Shown one piece after another: positions 1,055-36,173 of a stretch of 64,000 nucleotides of DNA (positions are counted from its first letter, which is position 1; each line of letters starts with the position of its first letter). Source of the DNA: Flavobacteriaceae bacterium (GTDB lineage Bacteria; Bacteroidota; Bacteroidia; Flavobacteriales; Flavobacteriaceae); NCBI GenBank assembly GCA_035654795.1, contig DASRWC010000011.1, forward strand, positions 9,734 through 73,733, given 5' to 3'. The notes under the pieces were generated by a model. That model had not been told where the DNA came from. It made no database searches and worked only from the letters and a program-made list of their open reading frames with translations. Both the position numbers and the translations under genes were made by a program.

Positions 1055-1068
1055 CTGATGGTTGTCAG
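1055..1068 (+). promoter_or_regulatory. Crp/Fnr-like box CTGAT-GGTT-GTCAG upstream of the three-gene USP operon
   Basis: TGA-N6-TCA core. The centre (1061.5) is 29.5 nt before TATCTTTA at 1091. Confidence 0.4.
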
Positions 1069-1090
1069 TATTACAGTAATGTGAATTTCC

Positions 1091-1098
1091 TATCTTTA
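1091..1098 (+). promoter_or_regulatory. Candidate -7 box TATCTTTA (one mismatch to TAnnTTTG)
   Basis: Read directly. Lies 30 nt upstream of the ATG at 1128. Confidence 0.35.
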
Positions 1099-1127: not shown

Positions 1128-1973
1128 ATGCAAAAAATTTTAATTCCAACAGATTTATCACAAAATGCTCTCCGTGCCATTCATTATGCGACGGAATTGT
1201 TTAAACATGGCCCCACTCGCATTTTTCTGCTGCATGCTTATGCCGATGAGGTTTATGACCTGAAAAATCAAAGACAGGACCGTGAGTTTGATGAATTAAA
1301 GCGAGAAGTTTTTATTCGTACAGATTCTGCTCTTGAGATGTTAAAAAAGGAGATTTTTGTTCTGTCTCCCAATCCGAAACACAGCGTGCAGTGTCAGCCT
1401 GAATTTGGTATGTTGGTGGATGCAGTGAATGATTGGGTGGAAAAGGAGAATATTGATGTTGTGGTCATGGGCACTAAGGGGCAAACGGCAGACAAGAAAA
1501 TGACTTTTGGGAGTAACACCCTTCAGGTAATCAAATATGTCAAATGCCCGGTGCTTGCGGTACCTGAGGCGAGCAAACTTGAAAACCCGAAAAACATTGT
1601 TTTTGCCACTGATTTTCTTCTTCCTTATAAAAGAAGAGAATTGAAACTACTCTCGAATCTTGCCAAGCGCTTTGCTGCAAGAATTCATTTTCTTCATATC
1701 TCAAATTTCTCTCAGCTATCGTTACGGCAGCAGGATAATAAAGCTTTTTTAGAAGCTATGTTGAGTGAGAATCATCTTGCTTTTCATCAAACAGAAGAAA
1801 AGGATATCACTAAGGCCGTCAATAAATTTATTGAAGAGAAAGAAATGGATATGTTAGTAATGGTCAATACGCGCCATTCTTATTTAGAAAATATCTTATA
1901 TCAATCTACAATCGAAAAGATTGGATTAAATATTGAAATTCCATTTTTAGTTTTACAAAACTTGCCGCGTTAA
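1128..1973 (+). CDS. Universal stress protein family, two-domain
   Basis: ILIPTDLSQNALRAIHYA N-terminus. G-TK-G-x9-GS nucleotide-binding loop (MGTKGQTADKKMTFGSN). CPVLAVPE motif. C-terminal domain lacks the G-x2-G loop. Confidence 0.9.
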   Translation: MQKILIPTDLSQNALRAIHYATELFKHGPTRIFLLHAYADEVYDLKNQRQDREFDELKREVFIRTDSALEMLKKEIFVLSPNPKHSVQCQPEFGMLVDAVNDWVEKENIDVVVMGTKGQTADKKMTFGSNTLQVIKYVKCPVLAVPEASKLENPKNIVFATDFLLPYKRRELKLLSNLAKRFAARIHFLHISNFSQLSLRQQDNKAFLEAMLSENHLAFHQTEEKDITKAVNKFIEEKEMDMLVMVNTRHSYLENILYQSTIEKIGLNIEIPFLVLQNLPR

Positions 1974-1977
1974 TTAT

Positions 1978-2829
1978 ATGAAAAGAATTTTAGTACCTAC
2001 AGATTTTTCAGGCAATGCTTATTCTGCCTTACTCTATGCTTGTAAACTTTATTCGAAAGAAAATGTTCATTTTGCCATTCTCCATTCTTTTGAAGCAGAG
2101 CTTAGTCAATTGACCAGTAGGGTAGATGTAGGACGATCTGATGAAATGTTAAAAACACTCACAGACAATGCTGAGCAAGACGGCCAGCGCTTACTGGATC
2201 AATTAAATGTTGATAAAGGACCAAGTAATCATACGTATGAAGTGATTGCAACACCGCAACCTCTACTGAAGATTATCAATGAAATGATATCCGAAGATGT
2301 TGTAGACTTAGTGGTTGTCGGTAGTAAGGGAAGAACCGGAGCTGAGGGTGTCTTGATAGGAAGTACTGCTATAAATGTTACTGAGGGCATTGAAGGCTGT
2401 CCTTTATTGATTGTACCAAATGATGTTCATTTCGTAATTCCCCGAAAAATCGCCTTTGCTTCAGATTTTAATGATTTTTATCCCATTTCTACCATTAAGG
2501 CTATTACTAGGCTGGTGAGACATTTTGGTTCCGAAATTTATTTAGCTCACGTCGGTTCCGAAAATGAATTGGAAGCTCATCAGCGTGAGAATATGGAGAA
2601 GTATGAAAACGATTTGTCTGAATATGAGCACTACTTCAGGTTCCTTGAGAGGAAAGGAAATATCTCCGGGACATTGCATGACTTTGCCGACGATGAAAGT
2701 ATTGATCTCTTCTCTCTGGTATATCACAAGCATGCATTTTTGAAAAAAATATTCAGAGAACCTGTTGTAAATAGGGTAGGAAGACATACAAACATCCCGA
2801 CACTTGTAATACCATTTCCAAATAAATAA
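1978..2829 (+). CDS. Universal stress protein family, two-domain
   Basis: ILVPTDFSGNAYSALLYA N-terminus, VGSKGRTGAEGVLIGST loop. Starts 4 nt after the previous paralog. Confidence 0.9.
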   Translation: MKRILVPTDFSGNAYSALLYACKLYSKENVHFAILHSFEAELSQLTSRVDVGRSDEMLKTLTDNAEQDGQRLLDQLNVDKGPSNHTYEVIATPQPLLKIINEMISEDVVDLVVVGSKGRTGAEGVLIGSTAINVTEGIEGCPLLIVPNDVHFVIPRKIAFASDFNDFYPISTIKAITRLVRHFGSEIYLAHVGSENELEAHQRENMEKYENDLSEYEHYFRFLERKGNISGTLHDFADDESIDLFSLVYHKHAFLKKIFREPVVNRVGRHTNIPTLVIPFPNK

Positions 2830-2839
2830 ATCCACTTCA

Positions 2840-3691
2840 ATGTCCTATAAAGTTCTAATTCCCACCGATTTTTCAAAGAATGCATTTAATGCCATTCAAT
2901 ATGCTTTTTCGCTATTTAAAGAAAGATCGTGTGAGATCCTGCTGGTGCATTCTTATTACCTATCCGGACTTGACAAAGGAAATCTTTTGGTTCCGGAGCC
3001 TTCTGATGAAGAACGAAAACGAGTGGAGCAAACAGCTGCCAGACAGATGGATGAGCTGCGAGGAACCTTGGAAGAGACGCATTCAAACCATAAACATACA
3101 CTAAGATTTTTGACTGTTTTCGGACCCTTCTATAAAGTGATGGAAGAGACTGTTGAAAAAGAGAACATCGATCTGGTTATAATGGGTACTAAGGGAAGAA
3201 GTAATAAAAATTCGGTTATTTTAGGAAGTAATGCCGTGAATGTTATGGAGAAAGTGCGATTTTGTCCGGTTATGGCTATTCCATCCGATGCAGAATTTAA
3301 AAAACCCAATGAAATCGTTTTCCCTACCAGTTTCCGAAGCCAATATCGAGAGCATGAGCTTGAAGTTCTTGTGGATTTAGCCTCTTTATTAAATGCACCC
3401 ATTCGAATACTGCACATCACCAATGATGACACCCTTACTGAACGACAAGAAGAAAATAAGCAATATCTTGAGTCTATCCTCCTACCTGCCACTTTTACAC
3501 ATCACCGATTATACAACATGAGAGTGAATGATGGAGTACGCACTTTTATTCAGAGTCGAGAGAGTGAAATGATAGCTTTTGTGAATAAGAGACACAACTT
3601 TTTTGGAAGTATCTTCTCCAATCCTATGGTAAAAGAATTAGGAACGCATACAGAAGTTCCTATACTTGCCATGCATGACAAACGCGATTAA
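2840..3691 (+). CDS. Universal stress protein family, two-domain
   Basis: VLIPTDFSKNAFNAIQYA N-terminus, MGTKGRSNKNSVILGSN loop. Starts 10 nt after the previous paralog and is followed by a strong hairpin. Confidence 0.9.
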   Translation: MSYKVLIPTDFSKNAFNAIQYAFSLFKERSCEILLVHSYYLSGLDKGNLLVPEPSDEERKRVEQTAARQMDELRGTLEETHSNHKHTLRFLTVFGPFYKVMEETVEKENIDLVIMGTKGRSNKNSVILGSNAVNVMEKVRFCPVMAIPSDAEFKKPNEIVFPTSFRSQYREHELEVLVDLASLLNAPIRILHITNDDTLTERQEENKQYLESILLPATFTHHRLYNMRVNDGVRTFIQSRESEMIAFVNKRHNFFGSIFSNPMVKELGTHTEVPILAMHDKRD

Positions 3692-3752: not shown

Positions 3753-4262
3753 TTACTTAAAATAGTCGTAAAAGCGAGTCAGTCGTTCTTCAATATCATT
3801 TACTAGAATTTGTCCTTCATTAGCAGACTCTACTTTGGAGAGGCTTTCAATTTTTTCTATTAATGGATGAAGCCAAATGTGCAGGTTGTCATGTGATGCA
3901 CCTTCCATAGTACATTCTTTGACAATGTAATTTTTATCTTCATTAAGTTTTTCTGCAAGTGCCTTATAGCTTTCAGTACCGGAAAGTTCAGTGGTATGGA
4001 TGTTTTTTCGCATCCTCTCTACACCGGTGATGGTTTCGGGATTGGCCATCCAAAGTTTTCCTTCGTCTAATTTTATTTCGTTTAACCAAGAATTTTCTAA
4101 ATCACCGGTTTTGTTGTGATGGCTTTCGGCATCAGACAGATGATCGCGATCTTCCTCAAGCATTTCCTGAGTGGCAGAATCCGGAGAGGAATCGGTATTG
4201 TTTTTACAGCCAAAAAATGTAAGAAAACCTGAAACAGTAAGTAAGAGTAGCGTTTTTTTCAT
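3753..4262 (-). CDS. Hypothetical lipoprotein, acidic and His-rich N-terminal region
   Basis: Internal ATG at 4260..4262 gives MKKTLLLLTVSGFLTFFGC|KNN (lipobox). I prefer it to the ORF-track start at 4397. Mature protein contains DRDHLSDAESHHNK and HDNLHIWLHP. No family recognised. Confidence 0.6.
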   Translation of the reverse strand: MKKTLLLLTVSGFLTFFGCKNNTDSSPDSATQEMLEEDRDHLSDAESHHNKTGDLENSWLNEIKLDEGKLWMANPETITGVERMRKNIHTTELSGTESYKALAEKLNEDKNYIVKECTMEGASHDNLHIWLHPLIEKIESLSKVESANEGQILVNDIEERLTRFYDYFK

Positions 4263-4344
4263 ATGGAAAAAGAATTTGAAATTGAGTGGATAAAAGTAAG
4301 CAATTTTTCTAAGGTTTAGATTATGATTTCTATCGGCTGTTTTA

Positions 4345-4358
4345 ATGATAATTATCAG
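4345..4358. promoter_or_regulatory. Crp/Fnr-like palindrome ATGAT-AATT-ATCAG (perfect 12-bp core TGATAATTATCA)
   Basis: Read directly. Lies in the divergent region between the lipoprotein gene (start 4262) and the nos operon. Confidence 0.35.
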
Positions 4359-4383
4359 TTTTAGTGGTGACATTTTACGACTT

Positions 4384-4397
4384 ATGACAATAATCAT
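4384..4397. promoter_or_regulatory. Crp/Fnr-like imperfect palindrome ATGAC-AATA-ATCAT
   Basis: Read directly. One mismatch to the TGAT-N4-ATCA core. Confidence 0.25.
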
Positions 4398-4498
4398 TAT
4401 TTTTTATTCTGGATCTCTCTTTCTTTGTCTTAAAAATTTAGTAGGTCGCTAGTATATACCAAAATGAATTTTCAATAAAGGACTAATAGATCTTAAAT

Positions 4499-4512
4499 AT
4501 GATTAAAATCAT
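4499..4512 (+). promoter_or_regulatory. Crp/Fnr-type box ATGAT-TAAA-ATCAT upstream of the nos operon
   Basis: Perfect inverted half-sites with a TGA-N6-TCA core. The centre (4505.5) is 29.5 nt before the -7 box at 4535. Confidence 0.55.
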
Positions 4513-4534
4513 TTCACAGCCACAAAGAGCAATC

Positions 4535-4542
4535 TATTTTTG
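4535..4542 (+). promoter_or_regulatory. Bacteroidota-type -7 promoter box TATTTTTG for the nos operon
   Basis: Matches TAnnTTTG. Lies 28 nt upstream of the cytochrome c ATG at 4570. Confidence 0.5.
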
Positions 4543-4569
4543 CTCAGAATTTTAAAACCAAATACTACC

Positions 4570-5073
4570 ATGAAACATGTAATGAAAACTTTAGCTGCAG
4601 TGGCGATTTTGACCCTTGTAAGCTGCGGCGGAAAAGAAGAAAAGAAAGAGGAAAAAGTAACTCTTCGTTCTACAACAACTGAAACTGTAACTGAGGCGGC
4701 TCCGGCTACCTCTGATGTTAAACCTTCAGAGCGTGTTGATATGTCAACCAAAGGCGTGGGGCCTGTAAAAAGTGTAACCATAGGTGAGACTATCGATCAA
4801 GCTATGGCTGCAAAAGGGGAAGAATTGTATAAAACAAATTGCCTTGCCTGTCATAAGACTGACAAAAAATTTATTGGTCCGGCACCAAAAGGAATTCTTG
4901 ATAGACGTACTCCGGAGTGGGTTATGAATATGATTCTTGATCCGGAAGGAATGGTTAAAAACGATCCGTTAGCAAAAGAATTGCTTGTTGAATTTAACGG
5001 TTCTCCAATGGCTAATCAAGGCCTAACTCAGGACGAGGCTCGTCAGATTGTCGAGTATTTCAGAACGCTCTAA
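4570..5073 (+). CDS. Monohaem c-type cytochrome lipoprotein (NosC-like electron donor of clade II nos clusters)
   Basis: MKHVMKTLAAVAILTLVSC|GG lipobox. Single CLACH haem motif and a distal NGSPMANQG Met candidate. First gene of the nos operon. Confidence 0.85.
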   Translation: MKHVMKTLAAVAILTLVSCGGKEEKKEEKVTLRSTTTETVTEAAPATSDVKPSERVDMSTKGVGPVKSVTIGETIDQAMAAKGEELYKTNCLACHKTDKKFIGPAPKGILDRRTPEWVMNMILDPEGMVKNDPLAKELLVEFNGSPMANQGLTQDEARQIVEYFRTL

Positions 5074-5147
5074 TAGTAGGAACATTTAACTCAATATAAA
5101 CCTACTCCCAGGGAAAGTTTCCGGCGGGGTTCAAACAACAACCAACT

Positions 5148-5714
5148 ATGAAGTCAATTAATGTGCTTTTGGTTTCTGCAGCCATAACGGTCATGGCTTG
5201 CAAGAACGACTCACACGAGCAACCCGAAACAAGTGGAACAAAAACAACGACCGAGAATGCAACTGTCAAAAAAGGACAAGCGTTCATTGACAATGATCAG
5301 TCTCAGGCCAGTGTGCTTCAGATTGCGCTGAATTCTAAAGATCACACCACCTTGGTAGCCGCAGTGCAGGCTGCCGATTTGGAAAATTCTTTATCCAATG
5401 CAGGTCCATTAACGGTTTTTGCTCCTACCAACGCTGCTTTTGATGCATTGCCTGCAGGAACTGTGGAGGATCTTTTAAAACCTGAGAACAAGGAAAAATT
5501 AGCTTTCATTTTAAAGCATCACGTGACTCCCGGGAATTACGCCAAAGACTTTATGAAAAAGTTCAAAAAAGTGGGTCAAGCGAGCGGAGAAAACGCACCG
5601 GTACTTGTTGAAGGAGATGATGTATTGGTAGGAGGCGCGAGAATCGTAGCGAGTATCCCTGCCGGAAACGGAATCGTTCACGTTGTGGACAAAGTAATAT
5701 TACCTGAAAACTAA
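5148..5714 (+). CDS. Fasciclin (FAS1) domain lipoprotein
   Basis: Lipobox ITVMAC|KND. FAS1 signatures LTVFAPTNAAFDALP, LKHHV and NGIVHVVDKVILP. Confidence 0.85.
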   Translation: MKSINVLLVSAAITVMACKNDSHEQPETSGTKTTTENATVKKGQAFIDNDQSQASVLQIALNSKDHTTLVAAVQAADLENSLSNAGPLTVFAPTNAAFDALPAGTVEDLLKPENKEKLAFILKHHVTPGNYAKDFMKKFKKVGQASGENAPVLVEGDDVLVGGARIVASIPAGNGIVHVVDKVILPEN

Positions 5715-5738
5715 CATATAATTAAAAACGATTGAACA

Positions 5739-7700
5739 ATGAAAAAAACCATTCATTATTTATTTTCTCTTGTTATAGTCGCCGGATTGGTGAGCTGTAA
5801 TAATGGAGACAAAAAGAAACGCGGAGGCGGCGGATTAGCCACCAGTGCTGCTGAGCGCGTGTATGTAGCCCCGGGAGAGCACGATGAATTCTACGGATTT
5901 ATGTCAGGAGGATTTAGTGGTCAACTGGGAGTTTACGGACTTCCATCAGGGAGATTGTTAAAAGTGCTTCCGGTATTTTCTCAAAACCCTGAAAACGGTT
6001 GGGGATATACAGAAGAAACTAAGCCAATGCTTAATACTTCTTTCGGATTTGTGCCTTGGGATGACTCTCACCACCCTGATATCTCCCAGACAAATGGTGT
6101 ACTTGATGGACGATGGATTTTCATCAACGGAAACAACACCCCACGTATCGCCAGATTGAGTCTTGAAAGCTTTAGAACCGAAGAAATTATTGAGATTCCT
6201 AACTCTGCCGGTAACCACAGCTCCTCATTCATTACTGAAAATACAGAATATGTGGTAGCCGGTACTCGTTTCTCTGTTCCCGTTCCTCAGAAAGATATGT
6301 CTATTAAAGAGTATAAAGGAAACTTTAAAGGAGCTCTTACCTTTATCGCGGTTGACCAAGAAACCGGAAGAATGAATATTAAATTCCAGCTAATGATGCC
6401 CGGATTTAACTATGACCTTTCTCACCCCGGACGCGACAAGAGCCACGGCTGGTTCTTCTTTACAACCTATAACACTGAGGAAGCTCATACACTTCTTGAA
6501 GTAAACGCTTCTCAAAACGATAAAGACTATATCGCAGCTGTTAACTGGAAGAAAATTGAAGAGTACGTGAACAACGGTGGAGGAACAAAAACCAAAACCC
6601 GTTATGCACATAACGTAATGGATGCAAGTACCCATATGGCTACTTCTACAATTAAAGAAGAAGTTTTACAAGTAGATCCGCTTGAAGTACCGGGAGCTGT
6701 ATATTTCCTTCCAACTCCAAAGTCACCACACGGTTGTGACGTGGACCCAACAGGAGAATATATTATAGGAAACGGAAAACTTTCTGCTGACTTGACTGTT
6801 CACAGCTTCAGCAAAATGATTGATGCTATTGAAAACAAGAAGTTTGATGGAGAAGCCTACGGAATTCCAATTCTAAAGTTTGACGAGATTGTTGCAGGTG
6901 TTGTAAAACAACCCGGTCTTGGTCCACTCCACACAGAGTTTGATGACAAAGGAAACGCTTATACCACTTTCTTTATCTCTTCTGAAGTTGTAAAATGGAA
7001 AGTTGGAAGCTGGGAAGTATTAGACCGTCAGCCTGTTTATTACTCAGTAGGTCACGGAATGATTCCGGGAGGAAACTCACGCAAGCCATTCGGAAAATAT
7101 TTTGTAGCGCTTAACAAGATTACAAAAGACAGATATTTGCCTACAGGACCTGAGTTAACCCAGTCTGCGCAGTTATTTGACATTAGCGGAGAGAAAATGG
7201 AGTTACTGTTAGATTTCCCAACTATTGGAGAGCCTCACTACGCAGCCGGTATCCCTGCTGAACTTGTAGCACCAAAATCCAGACAGATTTATAGACTTAA
7301 TGAGAATAAACACCCATATGCAACATTGTCTGATGCTGATGCACGCGTTGAGAGAAAAGGAAATGAAGTTCATGTCTATATGGGAATGATTCGAAGCCAC
7401 TTTAATCCGGATAATATTGAAGGAATTAAAGTAGGAGATAAAGTTTACTTCCACGTGACAAACCACGAGCAAGACTTTGACGTACCTCACGGATTTGCAG
7501 TAATTGGAGCCAACAATGCCGAGATGCTGATTATGCCGGGTGCTACTGAAACATTGTTGTGGGAACCAAAAGAAGTTGGGGTATGGCCATTCTATTGTAC
7601 CGATTTCTGTTCTGCGCTTCACCAGGAAATGCAAGGATATATTCGAGTGAGCCCTGCAGATTCTAACATCCAGTTATCTTGGAGCTTAGGAGAAGATTAG
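5739..7700 (+). CDS. nosZ: Nitrous-oxide reductase, clade II (Sec-dependent, lipoprotein type)
   Basis: 653 aa. Signal peptide with lipobox GLVSC|NN and no twin-arginine motif. CuZ His ligand candidates: DSHHP, GNHSS, SPHGCDV, GPLHTEF, SVGHG, GEPHYA. C-terminal CuA motif C-TDF-C-SAL-H-QE-M (7596..7631). Confidence 0.97.
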   Translation: MKKTIHYLFSLVIVAGLVSCNNGDKKKRGGGGLATSAAERVYVAPGEHDEFYGFMSGGFSGQLGVYGLPSGRLLKVLPVFSQNPENGWGYTEETKPMLNTSFGFVPWDDSHHPDISQTNGVLDGRWIFINGNNTPRIARLSLESFRTEEIIEIPNSAGNHSSSFITENTEYVVAGTRFSVPVPQKDMSIKEYKGNFKGALTFIAVDQETGRMNIKFQLMMPGFNYDLSHPGRDKSHGWFFFTTYNTEEAHTLLEVNASQNDKDYIAAVNWKKIEEYVNNGGGTKTKTRYAHNVMDASTHMATSTIKEEVLQVDPLEVPGAVYFLPTPKSPHGCDVDPTGEYIIGNGKLSADLTVHSFSKMIDAIENKKFDGEAYGIPILKFDEIVAGVVKQPGLGPLHTEFDDKGNAYTTFFISSEVVKWKVGSWEVLDRQPVYYSVGHGMIPGGNSRKPFGKYFVALNKITKDRYLPTGPELTQSAQLFDISGEKMELLLDFPTIGEPHYAAGIPAELVAPKSRQIYRLNENKHPYATLSDADARVERKGNEVHVYMGMIRSHFNPDNIEGIKVGDKVYFHVTNHEQDFDVPHGFAVIGANNAEMLIMPGATETLLWEPKEVGVWPFYCTDFCSALHQEMQGYIRVSPADSNIQLSWSLGED

Positions 7701-7719
7701 TAAGTTAGTTTTTGGTTGT

Positions 7720-7788
7720 GAAAATACTAGATTGGTGATTGGTAGTATTTTCATTGAAGGCGGAGGTTGGTTGATTTCCTCCGCCTTC
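7720..7788 (+). other. Two adjacent perfect stem-loops just downstream of the nosZ stop, without a following T-tract
   Basis: Hairpin 1: GAAAATACTA (7720-7729) / TAGTATTTTC (7743-7752), with loop GATTGGTGATTGG. Hairpin 2: GAAGGCGGAGG (7756-7766) / CCTCCGCCTTC (7778-7788). An A-rich tract follows. Confidence 0.6.
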
Positions 7789-7895
7789 TAAAACCAAAAA
7801 AAATAAAAAAAACGACCATAATATTTAAAGCTCTACAACCTAAACCTTAGTAATTAATTGCGCCGAAGTATTTGCTTCGACCACAAAACACTGAT

Positions 7896-8531
7896 ATGAA
7901 AAAAGCAGGATTATTAATGATTGTGGGATCCCTTCTTCTATTGGGATTATTCAAATTTCCATTATGGAACATTATGCTAGGTGCACCGCAATATCCGGAT
8001 CCTCTGGGAATGGACATTTATATAGAAGGTATTAAAGGAGTAAAAGAATTTGATATTCAAAACATCGACGGTTTAAATCACTATATCGGGATGAAAACAA
8101 TCCCCAAAAACCACGAGATGTGGGAGTTTTCCGTGTTCCCGAAGGTAATCATGGGAATGGTAGCTCTAGGTGTAATTATCGGAATCCTTGGATTCATCGG
8201 AAAGGTAAGCTATAAATGGTTTCTAGGATGGTTTATTTTAATGTCTGTTTTAGGCATTCTAGGAATGTATGATTTTAATGCGTGGTTAACTGATTATGGA
8301 TCCAATTTAGATCCTCACGCAATTATGAGTTATACAAAACCTGACGGAACCCCTATGACTTACAAACCACCTCTTATCGGTTATCAGAAAATGCTCAATT
8401 TTGATGTGGATTCATGGCCTGCTTTAGGAGGATATTTAATGATGGCAGGGATGGCTTTGGTTTTTTTATCTTATTTTGTAGGAAAATCAGAGTACAAGAA
8501 GAAAGAAAAATTTAAACCCGCAATGGCATGA
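7896..8531 (+). CDS. Integral membrane protein of the nos cluster (NosB-like, about 4 TM helices)
   Basis: ATG at 7896 (MKKAGLLMIVGSLLLLGLF). Four hydrophobic helices with two predicted periplasmic loops. It sits directly downstream of nosZ, as reported for nosB in clade II clusters. Its stop overlaps the nosL start (ATGA at 8528-8531). Confidence 0.55.
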   Translation: MKKAGLLMIVGSLLLLGLFKFPLWNIMLGAPQYPDPLGMDIYIEGIKGVKEFDIQNIDGLNHYIGMKTIPKNHEMWEFSVFPKVIMGMVALGVIIGILGFIGKVSYKWFLGWFILMSVLGILGMYDFNAWLTDYGSNLDPHAIMSYTKPDGTPMTYKPPLIGYQKMLNFDVDSWPALGGYLMMAGMALVFLSYFVGKSEYKKKEKFKPAMA

Positions 8532-8968
8532 CCCGACTTTCAGTTTTTTTAATCGGAATAACTACTTTGCTTCTCACTGCTTGTGAAGTAGCACCGGAAA
8601 AAATAGAGTATGGAACAGATGCTTGCAGTTATTGTGACATGACAATAGTTGATCCAAAACACGCTTCACAAGTGGTCACTAAAAAAGGAAAAAATTATAA
8701 ATATGATGCCGTGGAATGTATGGTTCATCATCTTCAGGATGCTTTGGCTGATCAGCCCATAGCTCTAACTCTCGTTGCCGATTTTGATAATCCCGGAGAA
8801 TTGACAGATGCAGCCAAAGCCGGGTATTTGGTCAGTGAGGAGATAAAAAGCCCAATGGGGGCAAATCTGGCATCTTTTAAAAACGAGGAAAAAGCAAAAG
8901 CTGCTCAGCAGCTGTACAATGGAAAAACTTATTCCTGGAGCACCATCCGGGAACATTTAAAGCTCTAA
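8528..8968 (+). CDS. nosL: Copper chaperone lipoprotein NosL
   Basis: Lipobox LLLTAC|EV. CSYCDM motif and a conserved DAVECM segment. Positioned before nosD. Confidence 0.9.
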   Translation: MTRLSVFLIGITTLLLTACEVAPEKIEYGTDACSYCDMTIVDPKHASQVVTKKGKNYKYDAVECMVHHLQDALADQPIALTLVADFDNPGELTDAAKAGYLVSEEIKSPMGANLASFKNEEKAKAAQQLYNGKTYSWSTIREHLKL

Positions 8969-9006
8969 ATCAACCAAAAAAAGAGCCAATCACAAAAAAA
9001 AAATAA

Positions 9007-10260
9007 ATGGACCTAAATCATTTTGCTTTTATCCTTTTCCTGATAATCGGAGGAAATGGCGGATTTGCAAAAACGATTACAGTTTGTTCTTCTTGCGAAG
9101 TCAAGACCATAAAACAAGCTCTTGAATTGGCTTCTGACGGCGACACGATCCTCGTGAAGCCCGGAATATATAAAGAAGCGAATATCAAAATCAACAAATC
9201 CATTTCACTCATAGGAGAAGGAAAGCCCACCATAGACGGAGAAGAAAAGGGAGAAATAATAACCATAGGAGCTCCCCATGTAACTGTTGACGGATTTCTT
9301 ATTAAAAACGTAGGAAACAGTTTCACTAAAGATTATGCAGCCGTACGCATTGCAAACACCTCCGGATTTACCATCCAAAATTTAGAACTAAACAATCTAT
9401 ATTTCGGAATTTATCTTCAAAAAGCTGAAGATGGTAAGGTTCTGAACAACATTATCAAAGGTGACGCACAAAGCGAATTCAATTCCGGAAATGGGATTCA
9501 TCTTTGGAAATCGTCTAAAGTAGAGATTGCAGGAAATGATGTGCAGCGCGTGAGAGATGGGATCTATCTAGAGTTTTCAGATCAAGTTCACATTAGCAAC
9601 AACACGAGTAAGTATAATGTAAGGTACGGATTGCACTTTATGTTTAGCAATAACAATTATGCTCGTGACAATTATTTCGAGACTAATGGGGCCGGTATTG
9701 CGCTTATGTTTTCTCGAGACATGGAATTGACAGGAAATGTCATTAGAAAAAATTGGGGAACAGCTGCTTATGGTGTACTTCTTAAAGAAATAAATAATGC
9801 CGTAATAGCCTACAATACTTTTGAACTGAACACAGTGGCCGTTACCGTTGATGTTAGTACCAACATTGATTATTTTCATAATGATTTTATAAGCAACGGA
9901 TACGGACTTCGCATTCGAGGTGCTTCTTATAACTCGAAAATCAATAACAACAATTTTCTTTATAACTCCTTTGATTTAGCATATAACGGTAAGCTTAATG
10001 GCAATAATTTTGACGGAAATTACTGGAGTGGATACACCGGATATGACCTTGACAGAAATGGTATTGGAGATGTACCTTATAGGCCGGTGAAGCTTTTTTC
10101 TTATGTAGTCAATAGATCCTCACAGGCAATTATCTTGATGAGAAGCCTGTTTATTGACATTATCGATTTTTCTGAAAAGGTCTCACCAATTTTTACACCG
10201 GACAATTTGTTCGATGAAAAACCTAAAATGAAAAAAATCAACCATGATCGAAATAAATAA
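9007..10260 (+). CDS. nosD: Periplasmic beta-helix maturation protein NosD
   Basis: 417 aa. Signal peptide. Repetitive N/G/I-rich parallel beta-helix repeats (NNxIxGN pattern). The 3' end overlaps nosF by 17 nt. Confidence 0.92.
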   Translation: MDLNHFAFILFLIIGGNGGFAKTITVCSSCEVKTIKQALELASDGDTILVKPGIYKEANIKINKSISLIGEGKPTIDGEEKGEIITIGAPHVTVDGFLIKNVGNSFTKDYAAVRIANTSGFTIQNLELNNLYFGIYLQKAEDGKVLNNIIKGDAQSEFNSGNGIHLWKSSKVEIAGNDVQRVRDGIYLEFSDQVHISNNTSKYNVRYGLHFMFSNNNYARDNYFETNGAGIALMFSRDMELTGNVIRKNWGTAAYGVLLKEINNAVIAYNTFELNTVAVTVDVSTNIDYFHNDFISNGYGLRIRGASYNSKINNNNFLYNSFDLAYNGKLNGNNFDGNYWSGYTGYDLDRNGIGDVPYRPVKLFSYVVNRSSQAIILMRSLFIDIIDFSEKVSPIFTPDNLFDEKPKMKKINHDRNK

Positions 10261-10954
10261 TCTATATAAAAAATTTGGAAAGAATGAGGTGCTTAAAGGC
10301 ATTGATCTTTCAATAAAAAAGGGAGGGATTTTTGCGGTTTTAGGCCCTAACGGCTCAGGAAAAACTACTTTAATCAAATCAATACTCGGAATGGTAATAC
10401 CTAATTCCGGAGAGATTTTGGTAAATGGAGTTGCTTCAAAAAACAATTATAAATATCGAGATAAAATTGATTATCTGCCTCAAATTGCCAATTTTCCCGA
10501 AAACCTGAAGGTAAAGGAACTCATTGCAATGATTAAAGATCTTCGGAATTCGAAGACAGATAACGATGTAGAACTCATTGATATATTTAAGCTTGAGCCT
10601 TTCTTGGACAAGAAGCTCGTAAATTTATCCGGTGGAACCAAGCAAAAAGTTAATCTGGTCTTGACCTTTATGTTTGATAGCCCGATAATGATTCTCGATG
10701 AGCCAACTAATGGTCTGGATCCTATTTCTCATCTACGTTTAAAGGAATTGATCTTTAGAGAGAAGACCAAGGGTAAGACCATTTTGGTTACTTCTCATAT
10801 TCTAAATTTTGTAGAAGAGATTGCCGATGAGATTGTCTTCCTGTTGGAAGGGAAAATTTATTTTAAAGGAAGTACGTCCGAGCTTAAATCTCAGACAGGT
10901 CAGCCCGATTTTGAACACGCAATAGCCTCAATTTTATCCTCATCCTATGCTTAA
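10244..10954 (+). CDS. nosF: ABC transporter ATPase NosF
   Basis: Walker A GPNGSGKTT, signature LSGGTKQK, Walker B MILDEPT, H-loop TSHIL. Overlaps nosY by 8 nt. Confidence 0.92.
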   Translation: MIEINNLYKKFGKNEVLKGIDLSIKKGGIFAVLGPNGSGKTTLIKSILGMVIPNSGEILVNGVASKNNYKYRDKIDYLPQIANFPENLKVKELIAMIKDLRNSKTDNDVELIDIFKLEPFLDKKLVNLSGGTKQKVNLVLTFMFDSPIMILDEPTNGLDPISHLRLKELIFREKTKGKTILVTSHILNFVEEIADEIVFLLEGKIYFKGSTSELKSQTGQPDFEHAIASILSSSYA

Positions 10955-11729
10955 GATATTAAAATATAGTTTCTTCGATTTAATGCGAAGCCGTTGGAGC
11001 TACGTATATTTCCTGTTCTACTTGTTATTGGGCATTGTTTTACTTTTTCTTAATGACGATTTACCCAAAGCAGTAATTACTTTGATGAACGTTATCATCA
11101 TTCTTGTTCCTCTGATCGGGACCATTTTTGGAGTGATGTATTATTACAACTCGAGAGAATTTACAGAATTACTTTTAGCACAGCCCGTGAAACGAAGTTC
11201 TATCTTCCTGGGTCAATATTTTGGAGTGGCTACCTCACTGGCTATGAGTTTAATTATCGGATTGGGAGTCCCCTTTGTTTTTTACGGAATTTTTTACAGT
11301 GATGCTATCTGGGACTTTGTCCTTTTATTGGTTACCGGAGGATTTCTCACCTTCATTTTCACGGCTCTGGCTTTCGTAATTGCTTTAGCCAACGAAAATC
11401 GAATTAAAGGATTTGGTTATGCCATACTTGTATGGTTATTATTGGCGGTGATCTATGATGGATTGTTCCTGATGTCGTTATTGTATTTTGAGGATTATCC
11501 TTTGGATAAGTTTTCTTTGATTGCCACCATGTTCAATCCTGTGGACCTTTCCCGCGTGCTGATTCTGTTAAAATTGGATATTTCGGCACTTCTAGGATAT
11601 ACCGGAGCAGTTTTTCATAAATTCTTCGGAACAAATTTAGGATTGATTCTGTCTGTGACCATGCTTACCTTATGGGTAGCAATTCCAACCTTTTTTATCT
11701 GGAGAATCTCAAAAAAGAAAGATTTTTAA
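10947..11729 (+). CDS. nosY: ABC transporter permease NosY
   Basis: 260 aa with about 6 hydrophobic helices. Translationally coupled to nosF. Last gene of the cluster. Confidence 0.9.
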   Translation: MLKILKYSFFDLMRSRWSYVYFLFYLLLGIVLLFLNDDLPKAVITLMNVIIILVPLIGTIFGVMYYYNSREFTELLLAQPVKRSSIFLGQYFGVATSLAMSLIIGLGVPFVFYGIFYSDAIWDFVLLLVTGGFLTFIFTALAFVIALANENRIKGFGYAILVWLLLAVIYDGLFLMSLLYFEDYPLDKFSLIATMFNPVDLSRVLILLKLDISALLGYTGAVFHKFFGTNLGLILSVTMLTLWVAIPTFFIWRISKKKDF

Positions 11730-19182: not shown

Positions 19183-21603
19183 TTATCTAAGAGAGGCTCC
19201 AAAGTCTGTTTCAAACTTTTTTCGCAATTTCTCCATAATTTTATCTATCTGCACATCTGTCATTGTTTTCTCCTCGTCTCGAAATATAAATTTGAGGGCA
19301 TAACTTTTTTTCCCTTCAGGCAGATTTTTACCTGTGTAAACATCAAAGAGTTCCACTTTTTTCAACAGTTTCTTTTCCGTTTGAAAGGAGGCCTTTCTCA
19401 GACTGTCAAAGCTGATGTTTTCATCCAATAAAAGTGCGAAATCTCTTTCTGTTCCCGGATATTTTGGAATTGGTTGAACGTGGAAATTGGAAGTTGGAAC
19501 CTGGTTCAATATTTCAGCCCAATCAAAATCAGCATAAAAAACCTCAGTATGAACATCCATTTTTTTGCGTAGTTTTTTGTTCAAAATTCCGAATTGCACC
19601 AGTGACTTTTTATTTCTTTCAAAGGAAATGCCTTCTGAGAAAATATCAGAGACTTGGGTTTCTTCATTAACATCTGACAATCCCAAACGATCGAAAATGG
19701 CTGCTACAATTCCTTTCCCGAAGAAGAAATCCGATTTTCTATTGGGAATTGCCCAATTTCCTTCATTGCGCATTCCACTAATAAAGATCGTCAAGTGTTT
19801 TTTCTCATTATAGTTGTCGTTTTCTTGGGAATAGCTTTTTCCAAATTCGAACAATAACAAATTGTTGTTGTTTCTATTTTGGTTATAAGCGATGGTTTCC
19901 AGGCCCGAAAAAACCATAGAAGGTCTCATAATAGAAAGTTCCAGACTCAATGGATTGAGAATTTTTACCTCTTTTCCTTTTATTTCAGAAGCTGTTTCTG
20001 AATATTTTGGGCTGGAAAGAGAGTTGTTCAACATTTCGTGAAACCCTTGCGAAGTCAGAAAAGCGCCTATTTTATTTTGAACCTGATAATCCTCAACAAG
20101 ACCTATGGGAGCTGTACTTGCATTTAATTTTTGGGAGAATTTGATATTATTATATCCGTAAACTCTCAGAATCTCTTCAATAACATCCACCTCACGGGTA
20201 ACATCATTTCTATAGGGTGGCACCGTCATTCCGATTCCCGTTTCGGTCATGTTTGTAATTTTCATTTCCAGGGAAGTAAGAATGTTTTTGATGGTTTCCA
20301 TGGGAATTTTCTCCCCGATAAGCTGAGATGCTTTTTGAAACTGAAGAAAAACAGGATGTCCTTCAATCTTTTTCGGATAGAGGTCAATCAAATCGCTTGT
20401 TATAGTTCCACCAGCCAGTTCTTTAATCAGAATAACCGCTCGGCGCAGTGCATAATCGGCTATGTTAGGATCTACTCCGCGTTCAAAACGGAAAGATGCA
20501 TCGGTGCTAATTCCGTGTCTTTTGGCCGTTTTTCGAACGGTGACCGGATCAAAATATGCACTTTCCAGAAAAATGGAAGTCGTTTCCGAAGATACTCCAC
20601 TATTGAATCCGCCAAATACTCCGGCAATAGCCAGAGGTTTTTCAGCATCGCAGATCATTAAATCTTCCTCGTGGACTGTTCTCTCCACCCCGTCAAGCGT
20701 GACAAATTTTGTTCCTTTTTCTATGGTTTTTACATGAATCTCATTGCCCATGATTTTAGCCGTATCAAAGGCGTGAAGAGGCTGTCCTAATTCGTGCAGA
20801 ACATAATTGGTCGCATCCACAATGTTGTTAATGGGGGAGAGTCCAATGGCTTTGAGTCGGTTTTGTAACCATGTTGGTGAAGGAGCCACTTTGATATCGC
20901 TCATGGTAATTCCGCAATATCGCGGAGCGCGTGTGGCATCTTCTACCTGTACTTTTATCTTGTGGGTGCGATTATCTACTCTAAAATTTGTTGTTGAAGG
21001 AGTAATGACTTTTGAAGTCACGCCCCGTTGCAAAAGGCCTGCTTTTAGGTCTCTGGCTACTCCCCAATGACTCATTGCATCAGCGCGATTGGGAGTTAAT
21101 CCAATTTCAAAAACCTTATCATTTTCGATTTTAAAAACGGTTGCGGCAGGTGTTCCGGATTTAATTTTCCCATCAAGAACCATAATTCCTTCGTGAGCAT
21201 CGCCTATTCCCAATTCTTTTTCTGAACAAATCATTCCTTCGCTGACTTCTCCGCGAATTTTAGTTTTAGCAATTTTGAATTCACCTTCCGAAGTATGTAA
21301 AGTGGTCCCGATGGTGGCTACCAAAACTTTTTGATTGACAGCTACATTGGGAGCACCGCACACAATTTGCAGCGTAGTGTTTTTGTCAATTTCAACCTGG
21401 GTAAGTTTAAGTTTATCGGCATTAGGATGTGGTTCACAATTTTTCACGTGTCCCACCACCACACCTTCCAAACCTCCTTTTATAGGAGAAAAATCTTTAA
21501 TACCTTCTACTTCCAAACCTAAATCTGTCAAGAGTTCGCCGGTCTGAGTAGCATCATAAGGAATCTCGATAAACTGTTTTAGCCAGTTGTATGAAATCTG
21601 CAT
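19183..21603 (-). CDS. pheT: Phenylalanine--tRNA ligase beta subunit
   Basis: 806 aa. MQISYNWLKQF N-terminus, tRNA-binding domain (CEPHPNADKL), B3/4, B5 and FDX-ACB regions. Confidence 0.97.
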   Translation of the reverse strand: MQISYNWLKQFIEIPYDATQTGELLTDLGLEVEGIKDFSPIKGGLEGVVVGHVKNCEPHPNADKLKLTQVEIDKNTTLQIVCGAPNVAVNQKVLVATIGTTLHTSEGEFKIAKTKIRGEVSEGMICSEKELGIGDAHEGIMVLDGKIKSGTPAATVFKIENDKVFEIGLTPNRADAMSHWGVARDLKAGLLQRGVTSKVITPSTTNFRVDNRTHKIKVQVEDATRAPRYCGITMSDIKVAPSPTWLQNRLKAIGLSPINNIVDATNYVLHELGQPLHAFDTAKIMGNEIHVKTIEKGTKFVTLDGVERTVHEEDLMICDAEKPLAIAGVFGGFNSGVSSETTSIFLESAYFDPVTVRKTAKRHGISTDASFRFERGVDPNIADYALRRAVILIKELAGGTITSDLIDLYPKKIEGHPVFLQFQKASQLIGEKIPMETIKNILTSLEMKITNMTETGIGMTVPPYRNDVTREVDVIEEILRVYGYNNIKFSQKLNASTAPIGLVEDYQVQNKIGAFLTSQGFHEMLNNSLSSPKYSETASEIKGKEVKILNPLSLELSIMRPSMVFSGLETIAYNQNRNNNNLLLFEFGKSYSQENDNYNEKKHLTIFISGMRNEGNWAIPNRKSDFFFGKGIVAAIFDRLGLSDVNEETQVSDIFSEGISFERNKKSLVQFGILNKKLRKKMDVHTEVFYADFDWAEILNQVPTSNFHVQPIPKYPGTERDFALLLDENISFDSLRKASFQTEKKLLKKVELFDVYTGKNLPEGKKSYALKFIFRDEEKTMTDVQIDKIMEKLRKKFETDFGASLR

Positions 21604-28239: not shown

Positions 28240-28638
28240 ATGAAAAACTTTGTCGCCATACTTCTATCTACCCTTATCCTTACTCAAGGGGCGGGACTTG
28301 GTGTAGGCGACATTTTACTTTTTGGCCGGCTTCTGGAACACGCTCAGTGCCATTCAGAAAATTATGGAGATGATTTTTTGACATTTTTAGCAGAACATTA
28401 CGGGCCGTTGTATTCAGAGCATAAAGATGCACACGGAGAGGATGATTCCCATCATAAACACCTTCCTTTTCATCATGACCAATGTCATCATTCCATTGCA
28501 GAAGTAATCGTTTATTCTTATGAATTCCCGATTGAGCGTGCGTATTTACCAATTATTTCTGACTCCAATTTCTTTTATCTGGATTTACATTCTTCCTTTG
28601 AAAAGACACCGCTTTTCCAACCTCCCAAAATTGCATAA
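28240..28638 (+). CDS. Small His-rich protein with an N-terminal hydrophobic segment, first gene of the czc-like operon
   Basis: 132 aa. HAQCHSENYG, EHKDAHGEDDSHHKHLPFHHDQCHHS. No family recognised. Confidence 0.55.
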   Translation: MKNFVAILLSTLILTQGAGLGVGDILLFGRLLEHAQCHSENYGDDFLTFLAEHYGPLYSEHKDAHGEDDSHHKHLPFHHDQCHHSIAEVIVYSYEFPIERAYLPIISDSNFFYLDLHSSFEKTPLFQPPKIA

Positions 28639-34291: not shown

Positions 34292-34336
34292 CCGGCTGTT
34301 GATATGGATTTCTCTCATCAACAGCCGGTTTTTTTA
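34292..34336 (+). terminator. Intrinsic terminator after the czc-like operon
   Basis: Perfect 12-bp stem CCGGCTGTTGAT (34292-34303) / ATCAACAGCCGG (34317-34328), followed by T7. The T-tract overlaps the stop codon of the convergent gene. Confidence 0.85.
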
Positions 34337-34720
34337 TAATCTCAATTGAAGATAACCTTTTTGCTGAAGACGTAATGCATCGGTAAATGCATTTTCCACC
34401 ACTTCCATACGTTCAGGAATGTCAGTTTTTTTAAGTCCTAGTTTCTGCATAGACAGTTTGCAAACAGCCAATTCTACCTTGTATTTCATAGCATAATCTC
34501 TGAAAGTTTGTAGCTTGTCGTCATTTAATTCTCGTAATGCCGGACCATAAAAAACGATGCGGAAATGTCCGTCTCGAAATTCAGATGTGGCTACTTGCAT
34601 TACAGCATCTGCCATATTGAGATCTGACATAAGTATCACATAATCCGTTGTCGCACTTTTTTCCTGGGCAAATATTCCAAGATTCATTAGCAGCAAACAG
34701 AAGAATAAAATCTTTCTCAT
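34334..34720 (-). CDS. Secreted DsrE/DsrF-like family protein (tentative)
   Basis: Signal peptide MRKILFFCLLLMNLGIFAQ. IVFYGPAL..ELAVCKLS..GYLQLRL layout resembles YchN/DsrE-fold proteins. Paralog of the adjacent gene. Confidence 0.5.
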   Translation of the reverse strand: MRKILFFCLLLMNLGIFAQEKSATTDYVILMSDLNMADAVMQVATSEFRDGHFRIVFYGPALRELNDDKLQTFRDYAMKYKVELAVCKLSMQKLGLKKTDIPERMEVVENAFTDALRLQQKGYLQLRL

Positions 34721-34730
34721 ATTGCCATTT

Positions 34731-35165
34731 TTAAAGAGTGAGACTTAAGAAACCTTTATTCTGCATTTGCAGATCATGCAAAACAGCATTGTCAATAATT
34801 TTAACGGTATCTTCAAAAGGAGATGAATCTACCTTAAAGGCTTTTAAAGAATAACCGCAAATAAGCAAATTCACCTTATGATCTCCCGCATTCTTAATCA
34901 TCTCTTCAATTTCTGTCGGTTTTATATCTTTTACCGCATCACCATAAATTACTAAATCAAATTGACCGAACTCTTTTTCTTTTCCGGCCAGGGTTTTGGC
35001 GGTCATAAAAATTGAGGGAAGTTGTTCTAAATTCTTTGTGAGAACAACATAATTAAATGTCTTTTCGTTTTCTACAGAAACGGTTTGCGCAGAGAGCATT
35101 TTTACTTGAGCATTTCCTGAGATGCATACCAAAAAGAACAACAATGTGCTGATAAAGGTTTTCAT
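34731..35165 (-). CDS. Secreted DsrE/DsrF-like family protein (tentative)
   Basis: Signal peptide ending GNAQ. LVIYGDAV..LLICGYSL..GFLSLTL is parallel to the downstream paralog. Confidence 0.5.
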   Translation of the reverse strand: MKTFISTLLFFLVCISGNAQVKMLSAQTVSVENEKTFNYVVLTKNLEQLPSIFMTAKTLAGKEKEFGQFDLVIYGDAVKDIKPTEIEEMIKNAGDHKVNLLICGYSLKAFKVDSSPFEDTVKIIDNAVLHDLQMQNKGFLSLTL

Positions 35166-35245: not shown

Positions 35246-35259
35246 CTGATTTAAATCAT
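35246..35259 (+). promoter_or_regulatory. Crp/Fnr-type box CTGAT-TTAA-ATCAT (perfect 12-bp core TGATTTAAATCA) upstream of the fifth USP gene
   Basis: Read directly. The centre (35252.5) is 29.5 nt before the -7 box at 35282. Confidence 0.5.
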
Positions 35260-35281
35260 TTTCAAAGACCTGAGAAAAGAA

Positions 35282-35289
35282 TATATTTG
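35282..35289 (+). promoter_or_regulatory. Candidate -7 box TATATTTG
   Basis: Matches TAnnTTTG. Lies 45 nt upstream of the ATG at 35334. Confidence 0.45.
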
Positions 35290-35333: not shown

Positions 35334-36173
35334 ATGATTAAAAAAATATTAGTTCCGACAGATTTTTCCAAATCCTCAGAAAATGCGCTGGAGGTGGCAG
35401 CGGCCATTGCTAAACATCACGATGCTGAAATCATTCTTCTTCATATGATGGGTCTTGCTGACGGTATGGCAACAAAAAGTGATCAGCAAGAAGTTTTTAA
35501 AGCTTTATATTTCATGCGCTATGCCGAGCAACAATTTCAAAAATTGATGGAGAAAGAATACCTGCAAGGTGTTCAGATAACTGATACTGTTCACAACTAT
35601 GTAAATTTTAGCGAGATCAACACGGTATCCAGAGAGGTGGGCGCACATCTTATAGTTATGGGATCACACGGGGCAACCGGATTAAAAGAAGTTTTTGTGG
35701 GAAGTAACACAGAAAAAGTGGTACGCACATCAGATGTTCCTGTACTTGTAATTAAACATCAAACAACCAATTTCACCCCAAAATTGGGAGTTTTTGCTTG
35801 TGATTTTCAATCTGCGGCCGTAGGACCCTACAAACGAGCCAAAAGAATGTTTGAACTTCTCGGTCTTGAGATGCAACTTCTATATATCAATCTGGCAGGA
35901 GATTTTAGAAGCACACGTGAAATTGAAAAACGAATTATTAAGTTCTTGACCGATGCCGGCGAGGACAATCCGGTAATGACTGCAAATAAAGTTATTCAAT
36001 ATAACGACTACTCCGTAGAAGCCGGAATTTTCGCTTACAGTCAAGTAGCAAATGCCGATTTGATTGCCTTACCCACAGCAGGACGTCAAGGATTAGCACA
36101 TTTCTTCTCCGGAAGTATTGGAGAAGACGTAGTGAATCATTCAGATTTACCGGTGATGACTTTCCGCGTTTAA
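35334..36173 (+). CDS. Universal stress protein family, two-domain
   Basis: ILVPTDFSKSSENALEVA N-terminus, MGSHGATGLKEVFVGSNT (G-x2-G-x9-GS), DVPVLVIK. The second domain ends LPVMTFRV. Confidence 0.9.
   Translation: MIKKILVPTDFSKSSENALEVAAAIAKHHDAEIILLHMMGLADGMATKSDQQEVFKALYFMRYAEQQFQKLMEKEYLQGVQITDTVHNYVNFSEINTVSREVGAHLIVMGSHGATGLKEVFVGSNTEKVVRTSDVPVLVIKHQTTNFTPKLGVFACDFQSAAVGPYKRAKRMFELLGLEMQLLYINLAGDFRSTREIEKRIIKFLTDAGEDNPVMTANKVIQYNDYSVEAGIFAYSQVANADLIALPTAGRQGLAHFFSGSIGEDVVNHSDLPVMTFRV

Follow-up and report, generated by a model that had tools for sequence, protein, structure and literature searches.

The nos operon and its surroundings

The window (the whole 64-kb stretch of DNA analysed here) is a piece of the 91.6-kb metagenomic contig k141_6756552 (ENA ERZ27256727), whose gene table is referred to below as L081. 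It contains a nos operon, which was delimited by Pfam and NCBIfam matches, by the L081 gene table, and by synteny in 80 loci (Table 1). The NosZ protein scored 936 bits against TIGR04246, the Sec-dependent family (cut-off 625), indicating that it belongs to clade II, and its nearest relatives are Aequorivita-like, with 89% identity. Pfam analysis of the cluster ORFs and the L081 gene table identified nosL, nosD, nosF, and nosY and found neither nosR nor nosX in the nos cluster, in agreement with a first-pass annotation that had described the cluster as nosR-less and of clade II. The conserved membrane protein encoded after nosZ has no Pfam or NCBIfam match; its gene lies immediately 3' of nosZ in 78/78 loci that retain the region, and it occupies the place of nosB in clade II clusters. 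On the 5' side, the operon is preceded by a divergent lipoprotein gene and an array of USP genes. A scan of positions 4000-4900 with Rfam gave a single sub-threshold snoRNA match and thus no known RNA element, and a sigma-70 promoter and terminator scan was uninformative for this phylum.

The comparison set was assembled by a NosZ scan with one genome per species, yielding 80 Flavobacteriales loci with the common order cytochrome c-fasciclin-nosZ. Promoter counts were taken over 79 related Flavobacteriales nos loci.

Table 1. Features of the nos region and of related promoters in the window
Feature	Position	Strand	Sequence, evidence or remark
Weak/degenerate copy of the site B promoter	1055..1098	+	CTGATGGTTGTCAG, 22 nt, TATCTTTA; box at 1091; before the USP triplet (1128-3691)
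Lipoprotein gene	3753-4262	-	divergent from nos
Third near-site	4345..4358		ATGATAATTATCAG; 13/14 positions; fourth-best PWM match
Second upstream site B with degenerate box	4384..4427	+	ATGACAATAATCAT (4384-4397), 22-nt gap, TTTCTTTG (4420-4427)
Site A	4479..4494		AGGACTAATAGATCTT (ArGAY-N6-RTCyT); centre at about -60.5, 19 bp before that of site B
Site B, 22-bp Crp/Fnr-type palindrome	4495..4516		AAATATGATTAAAATCATTTCA; sequence, 70-orthologue profile, top PWM match
Bacteroidota sigma-A -7 box (TAnnTTTG)	4535..4542	+	TATTTTTG; invariant in orthologues
Predicted transcription start (~4547)	4546..4548	+	leader ~23 nt; inferred from the -12 to -5 rule
nos operon	4570..11729	+	Pfam, NCBIfam, L081 gene table, synteny in 80 loci
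Cytochrome c, lipoprotein type	4570-5073	+	first gene of the operon; ATG at 4570
Fasciclin	5148-5714	+	
nosZ, Sec-type	5739-7700	+	
NosB-like conserved membrane protein	7872-8531	+	
nosL	8528-8968	+	
nosD	9007-10260	+	
nosF	10244-10954	+	
nosY	10947-11729	+	
Two DsrE/DsrF-like genes	34334-35165	-	divergent from the USP gene at 35334
USP promoter	35246..35289	+	CTGATTTAAATCAT, 22 nt, TATATTTG; box at 35282; USP gene 35334-36173

A Crp/Fnr-type palindrome upstream of a -7 box

The region upstream of nos contains an even 22-bp palindrome, AAATATGAY-N4-RTCATATTT, which we call site B. Its core, ATGAT-N4-ATCAT (ATGATTAAAATCAT, 4499-4512), is centred at 4505.5 and has the TGA-N6-TCA arrangement of CRP and FNR sites. 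A gap of 22 nt separates this core from the -7 box, and the T with which the box opens is 29.5 nt away from the centre of the palindrome; 27 nt then lie between the box and the cytochrome c ATG, compared with a median of 25 nt in the orthologues. The first-pass annotation had reported a Crp/Fnr-type palindrome at a class II distance from a -7 box at this place, and its coordinates for the palindrome, the box and the start codon (4499-4512, 4535-4542, and 4570, with the 29.5-nt distance) were all exact.

Across 70 orthologues, the TGA and TCA bases of site B are invariant. The canonical FNR/FixK half-site, TTGA(T), is not what we observed: the outer base is A in 70/70 sites, with C or G in variants, and TTGAT-N4-ATCAA has no match anywhere in the 64-kb window. 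The composite ATGA-N6-TCAT-N22-TAnnTTTG, with up to one mismatch, was found four times in the window against 0.09 expected, far more than chance would give. Three of the composites (4384, 4499, and 35246) are intergenic; the fourth, at 21514, was treated as chance because it lies inside pheT. By itself, ATGA-N6-TCAT has eight matches in the window, compared with 2.3 expected. Those at 28442 and 28475 were set aside as codon coincidences of a His/Asp-rich ORF. This ORF (28240-28638) encodes a 132-aa secreted protein (GEDDSHHKHLPFHHDQCHH), lies 5' of a 1,446-aa ORF and of a gene for an HlyD-type membrane-fusion protein, and probably specifies a metal-efflux accessory protein.

When a PWM was trained on the 70 orthologous sites, leaving out the site of the window, 4495-4516 ranked first in the window with 18.4 bits. 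Three of the best four matches fell in the nos intergenic region, while only ~8% of the window is non-coding. Thus, in the comparison of intergenic with coding DNA that had been proposed as a check, the site was enriched in intergenic DNA, as judged from both the top PWM matches and three of the four composites.

Conservation and geometry of the nos promoter

Within the 300 nt upstream of nos, ATGA-N6-TCAT was the commonest gapped palindrome, being present in 74/79 loci. It was followed by a gap of exactly 22 nt and TAnnTTTG in 71/79 loci, and gaps of 18-21 or 23-26 nt between the two elements occurred in none of the 79. A variant (a CTGA or GTGA arm, or an imperfect box) is present in seven of the other eight loci, so that the alignment of orthologous promoters, another of the proposed checks, revealed an xTGA-N6-TCAT site in 78/79 loci in all, with an invariant gap. 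Between the box and the start codon, the spacing varies, with 20 nt as the shortest and 137 nt as the longest. In the 70 orthologues, the information content is high over T.TCCTwAAT-ATGAYwwwwRTCAT-rTTTT and over the box and falls to about zero in the 17 nt between, a pattern that points to selection on the elements and on their spacing. Exact composites numbered 112 in the 1.58 Mb of loci and zero in ten block shuffles. Because site B is kept at the exact spot in almost every relative, it is very likely the missing on-switch of nos in this group.

According to the transcription start sites mapped in Flavobacterium psychrophilum, TAnnTTTG, the sigma-A consensus, occupies positions -12 to -5 (PMC9723704). 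If this rule holds here, site B would be centred at -41.5, the class II position of Crp/Fnr activators and the one that the first-pass annotation had anticipated. The lack of a -33 TTTG could not be used as evidence, since the -33 box is weak or variable in Flavobacteria. In E. coli, an FNR site at -41.5 is likewise 29.5 nt from the T at -12 of the -10 hexamer. At three loci (L056 at ~6580-6690, L015 at 8647, and L034 at 9387), a lone site B has TAnnTTTG 22 nt away on both strands; with such an arrangement, one bound dimer could serve two divergent promoters, either nos and rrf2 or nos and USP.

Other copies of site B and a putative regulon

Two more copies lie upstream of site B in the window (Table 1). 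The one at 4384 may be either a weak second promoter or the relic of a divergent USP promoter; its counterpart precedes a divergent USP gene in seven loci (L002, L003, L004, L008, L009, L010, and L015). For the near-site at 4345, no -7 box was present at the class II gap on either strand. Elsewhere in the window, the same geometry had been claimed for two USP promoters. At 35246/35282, this was borne out; at 1055/1091, the gap is the same but the site is degenerate and weak, a feature that had been overlooked. In L001, the orthologue of this site is a perfect ATGA-N6-TCAT (ATGAGCGATATCAT plus TATCTTTA). A further USP gene, just beyond the left edge of the window, is preceded by CTGATTTTTATCAT plus TACATTTG (position 8772 of L081).

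We surveyed the flanks of the 80 loci for the composite on either strand. It was found before hemN, which encodes the radical-SAM coproporphyrinogen oxidase, in 20 loci, at 17 USP promoters in 13 loci, before nirK in three loci, and before Rrf2 genes likewise in three loci; ric/ytfE, ccoS, a gene for a norC-like cytochrome, a thioredoxin gene, and others followed it in single or few loci, and Crp-family genes were also among those behind a composite promoter. The occurrence of site B at an equal distance before hemN, USP, and other low-oxygen or denitrification genes would place nos within an FNR/FixK-like regulon; judged by its gene content, this putative regulon is of the FNR/FixK low-oxygen type. 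Under oxygen limitation, F. psychrophilum is reported to induce its cbb3 oxidase and haem synthesis (PMC9723704). A division of the sites by CTGA and ATGA half-sites was tried and dropped, as it did not cleanly separate USP from hemN or nos targets.

Site A and the adjacent Rrf2 gene

A second palindrome, site A, had escaped the first-pass annotation. It is the sole match to ArGAY-N6-RTCyT in the 64-kb window, and it was found with zero or one mismatch in 55/60 nos promoters, starting 19-21 nt before site B and exactly 20 nt before it in most loci. Beyond nos, site A was seen before nirK and before an unknown gene of 124 aa; at hemN and USP promoters, its position looks random. In L070 (~5077), L036 (~15872), and a third locus, a membrane protein of 124-132 aa (MKSYV..LIKPLWPIAEY.., with a CNGKC motif) is encoded behind sites A and B. 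The presence of both sites before this gene, as at nos and nirK, suggests an unrecognised denitrification accessory gene.

In 39/79 loci, a gene for a 3-Cys Rrf2-family protein, followed by ric/ytfE, is divergent from nos across ~120 nt; the window has no rrf2 adjoining nos. Rrf2 genes have been described as enriched near clade II nos (PMC6264515). Where an Rrf2 gene adjoins nos, site A is placed in the spacer of the rrf2 promoter, bounded by site B and the rrf2 -7 box. As this is where an autoregulatory operator would be expected, we provisionally assign site A to the Rrf2 protein, an assignment that we regard as evenly balanced. The protein scores only as a generic Rrf2, below the NsrR and IscR cut-offs, and the published NsrR motif, gATGyAT-N5-ATrCATc, fits neither site A nor site B. 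The AAGAT/ATCTT arms of site A resemble the outer arms of NsrR sites, and its location in the promoter of a 3-Cys Rrf2 gene with ric/ytfE next to it is another likeness to NsrR/Rrf2 operators; unlike them, it spans 16 bp (AAGAY-N6-RTCTT), whereas the published NsrR motif spans 19-23 bp. Together, site A and the adjacent Rrf2 gene imply that nos would not be controlled through site B alone.

Candidate proteins for site B

No Crp/Fnr gene was found in the window, nor in what was read of its 91.6-kb contig, from ~11 kb inside the left end rightwards. The L001 arrangement, with a regulator immediately beyond the window's left edge, was considered and rejected, since L081 shows a fifth USP gene there and then dnaK; the right end of the contig (L085) has no regulator. 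When positions 6705-9633 of L081 were compared with 6763-9965 of L092, dnaK stood where relatives carry an operon of a histidine kinase and a REC-Crp fusion. Synteny between the two loci returns at the first USP gene, where the site B promoter is still present, which points to a rearrangement by which regulator and targets came apart. The earlier statement that the cluster carries no regulator gene thus stands for the window and for the contig as read, but it does not extend to the relatives, where nos has an Rrf2 gene next to it (39/79) or, in the Aequorivita clade, the genes for the kinase and the REC-Crp fusion; these neighbours of nos had not been noticed.

Three Crp/Fnr subfamilies, identified by ORF clustering and tblastn, are encoded within 10 kb of nos in relatives. 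The first is a 347-aa fusion of Response_reg, cNMP_binding, and HTH_Crp_2 domains, encoded downstream of a PAS histidine kinase (the two genes together at 1743-4027 in L001). In the PDB, the PAS domain of this kinase (L001) best matches FixL and DosP haem domains, with the proximal His aligned. The pair was seen in Aequorivita-like loci (L001, L003, L015, L028, L086, L088, and L092-L095). It lies directly 5' of a block of four USP genes, the lipoprotein gene, and nos in L001 and L092-L094. In L003, L015, L028, and L086, the pair precedes a USP array and, a few kb beyond it, nos; in L088, it precedes just a USP array. Site B with its box is found on both sides of the kinase/REC-Crp operon in L001, L086, L088, and L092, and before the USP gene downstream of the operon in L003, L015, and L028. 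The fusion family has at least 7,996 matches at E<1e-30 and, among the matches listed, occurs in every named Aequorivita species; in A. vitellina, the fusion and nos are on different contigs. Databases label the fusion as 'response regulator' only.

The second subfamily is a Cys-rich FNR-like protein of 233 aa with an equivalent of C122, found in L039 and L022, whose best NCBIfam match is Fnr, below the cut-off. The third is a short Crp of 197-201 aa, encoded behind or beside site B in L022 (as hemN-crp), L034, L052, and L078. All three candidates keep the recognition-helix Glu and Arg that read TGA, have Ile at the position of FNR Ser212, and lack CRP Arg180. These residues would be compatible with a non-G, non-canonical outer base and do not discriminate among the candidates, so that by sequence the three subfamilies appear equally compatible with site B. 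We know of no characterised regulator that prefers an ATGA outer arm. In the Aequorivita clade, the best candidate for the site B protein would be the REC-Crp fusion acting with the FixL-like haem-PAS kinase, an identification that we put forward tentatively and at somewhat less than an even chance, with the Cys-rich FNR-like protein and the short Crp as alternatives.

Proposed mechanism and alternatives

On the sequence evidence, we consider with good confidence that site B is a Crp/Fnr-type class II activator site controlling nos; conservation, the fixed gap, and intergenic enrichment all support the proposal, made at first pass, that it is a control element of the operon. A dimeric activator of the Crp/Fnr family would bind site B at -41.5 of a sigma-A promoter with a -7 box and would turn the nos operon on through class II activation, in which the activator touches RNA polymerase directly. 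The most likely trigger would be oxygen limitation; from regulon content and the kinase seen in relatives only, we lean towards oxygen as the signal. Site A would add an input specific to nos and nirK, probably through an Fe-S Rrf2 (NsrR-like) regulator that reports NO. The nos promoter would then combine a general input at site B with a denitrification-specific input at site A. The full scheme, in which a dimeric Crp/Fnr activator works at -41.5 in class II fashion at low oxygen within an FNR/FixK-like regulon and site A provides an additional input, seems probable to us.

It is also conceivable, if rather unlikely, that in marine Flavobacteriia the two palindromes form an AND gate, in which the haem-PAS oxygen kinase would phosphorylate the REC-Crp fusion, which would bind ATGA-N6-TCAT at -41.5, and an Fe-S Rrf2 protein at -60.5 would gate this activation by NO. 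If true, the first of these inputs would be a collapsed FixLJ-FixK pathway that recruits the Bacteroidota sigma-A polymerase. We are aware of no organism in which either the ATGA specificity or the fused regulator has been characterised.

That A+T-rich intergenic DNA yields many short palindromes, and that several of the eight ATGA-N6-TCAT matches in the window lie in coding DNA, might suggest that site B is a functionless inverted repeat that arose by chance. We give this reading practically no weight: the excess of composites in the window (four against 0.09) and in the loci (112 against none in ten shuffles) argues against it, and the conservation data already refute it, as the exact position is kept across genera while adjacent bases drift. 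Site B could instead be the operator of a repressor, either Rrf2/NsrR-like or Crp-type; such an operator, overlapping the -33 region, would hold nos silent until de-repression. A divergent Rrf2 gene adjoins nos in about half of the loci (39/79) with site B in the shared intergenic region, and Rrf2 regulons elsewhere take in nirK, nor, and ytfE (PMC1274295). However, a repressor does not need the base-pair-fixed gap that we observed in 71/71 promoters; the NsrR motif reads ATG-N11-CAT, whereas site B reads ATG-N8-CAT, and a TGA-N6-TCA core in an even 22-mer is the signature of Crp/Fnr. In addition, hemN, USP, and crp genes have site B too, as do loci with no rrf2 nearby, the window among them, and a separate palindrome, site A, already fills the expected place of the autoregulatory operator in the rrf2 promoter spacer. 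For these reasons, we judge repression at site B very improbable and infer that the bound protein activates.

The activator might respond to NO or another N-oxide rather than to oxygen, as a protein of the Dnr/NnrR/Nss type would, for example the short Crp. Consistent with this idea, short Crp genes are found behind or beside site B in L022, L034, L052, and L078, the composite also precedes nirK, ric (ytfE), rrf2, and the norC-like gene, and DNR and NNR use FNR-like boxes at proteobacterial nos genes (PMC1274295; PMC3541799). Yet hemN, USP, and ccoS, which have site B without site A, are typical targets of oxygen limitation, the input specific to nos and nirK is more economically given to site A, and the short Crp is present in only 4/80 loci. 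We regard an N-oxide sensor at site B as unlikely and prefer the activator that answers to low oxygen.

Comparison with known systems

The proposed arrangement resembles the class II promoters of E. coli FNR (TTGAT-N4-ATCAA at -41.5) in its TGA-N6-TCA inverted repeat with even symmetry and A/T flanks, in the 29.5 nt between the centre and the first base of the -10-equivalent, and in having hemN-type anaerobic genes in the regulon. It differs in the outer base of the site, which is A (ATGA...TCAT) and not T, and in the promoter, which has the Bacteroidota TAnnTTTG -7 box instead of TATAAT; the binding protein here is putative.

Control of clade I nos by FnrP/NNR in Paracoccus, DNR in Pseudomonas, and FixK2 in Bradyrhizobium, for which class II activation is established, likewise relies on Crp/Fnr activators at FNR-type boxes. 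Those systems are Tat-dependent, have nosR, and belong to Proteobacteria with sigma-70 promoters and TTGA boxes, whereas the cluster here is a Sec-type clade II cluster of Flavobacteriales without nosR. In Wolinella, Crp/Fnr regulation of clade II nosZ by NssA/B/C has been proposed. A similar proposal was made for Nitrosophilus labii, another member of the Campylobacterota (PMC11539149). The likeness to the Campylobacterota is that of a nosR-less clade II nos cluster thought to be Crp/Fnr-driven; the phylum, the promoter type, and the composition of the cluster (nosG, nosH, nosC) differ, and no motif is known to be shared. In the clade I systems, N2O reductase is switched on by low oxygen and NO (PMC3541799; PMC5582078; PMC1274295).

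The system in the relatives is also reminiscent of FixL-FixJ-FixK of alpha-proteobacteria, with a FixL/DosP-like haem-PAS kinase that has the proximal His, a phospho-receiver, and a Crp-type output; the putative target box and that of FixK (TTGA-N6-TCAA) are alike except at the outer base, and USP, hemN, and cbb3-type genes would be targets. Unlike FixJ and FixK, which are separate, the receiver and Crp domains in the relatives are fused in a single 347-aa protein, so that the two-step cascade would be collapsed, and this protein is absent from the contig of the window as read. A different Crp-type motif, HcpR2 (GTAAC-N4-GTTAC), was described in Bacteroides by Rodionov et al. (PMC1274295). The literature that we searched describes neither ATGA-N6-TCAT nor site A nor the fused regulator, and recent papers on flavobacteria as N2O sinks do not deal with regulators of transcription. 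How nos is switched in Bacteroidota has been stated to be unknown (PMC6264515). What is familiar in our findings is the proposed mechanism, class II activation by Crp/Fnr; less so are the half-site and the type of promoter on which it acts, the layout with two palindromes, and the likely architecture of the regulator.

For comparative purposes, the nos promoter is a clear example of the geometry of class II-type activation on the -7/-33 promoter of Bacteroidota, itself unusual. Among the major sinks of N2O in coastal sediments, oceans, and engineered systems are flavobacteria that carry clade II NosZ (PMC13502197; PMC11168931). With a cis-element whose conservation extends to the base pair, a defined regulon, and three candidate regulators, the switching of nos in this group becomes directly testable, and the sites provide a sequence signature with which it might be predicted from genomes or metagenomes when N2O reductase will be expressed.
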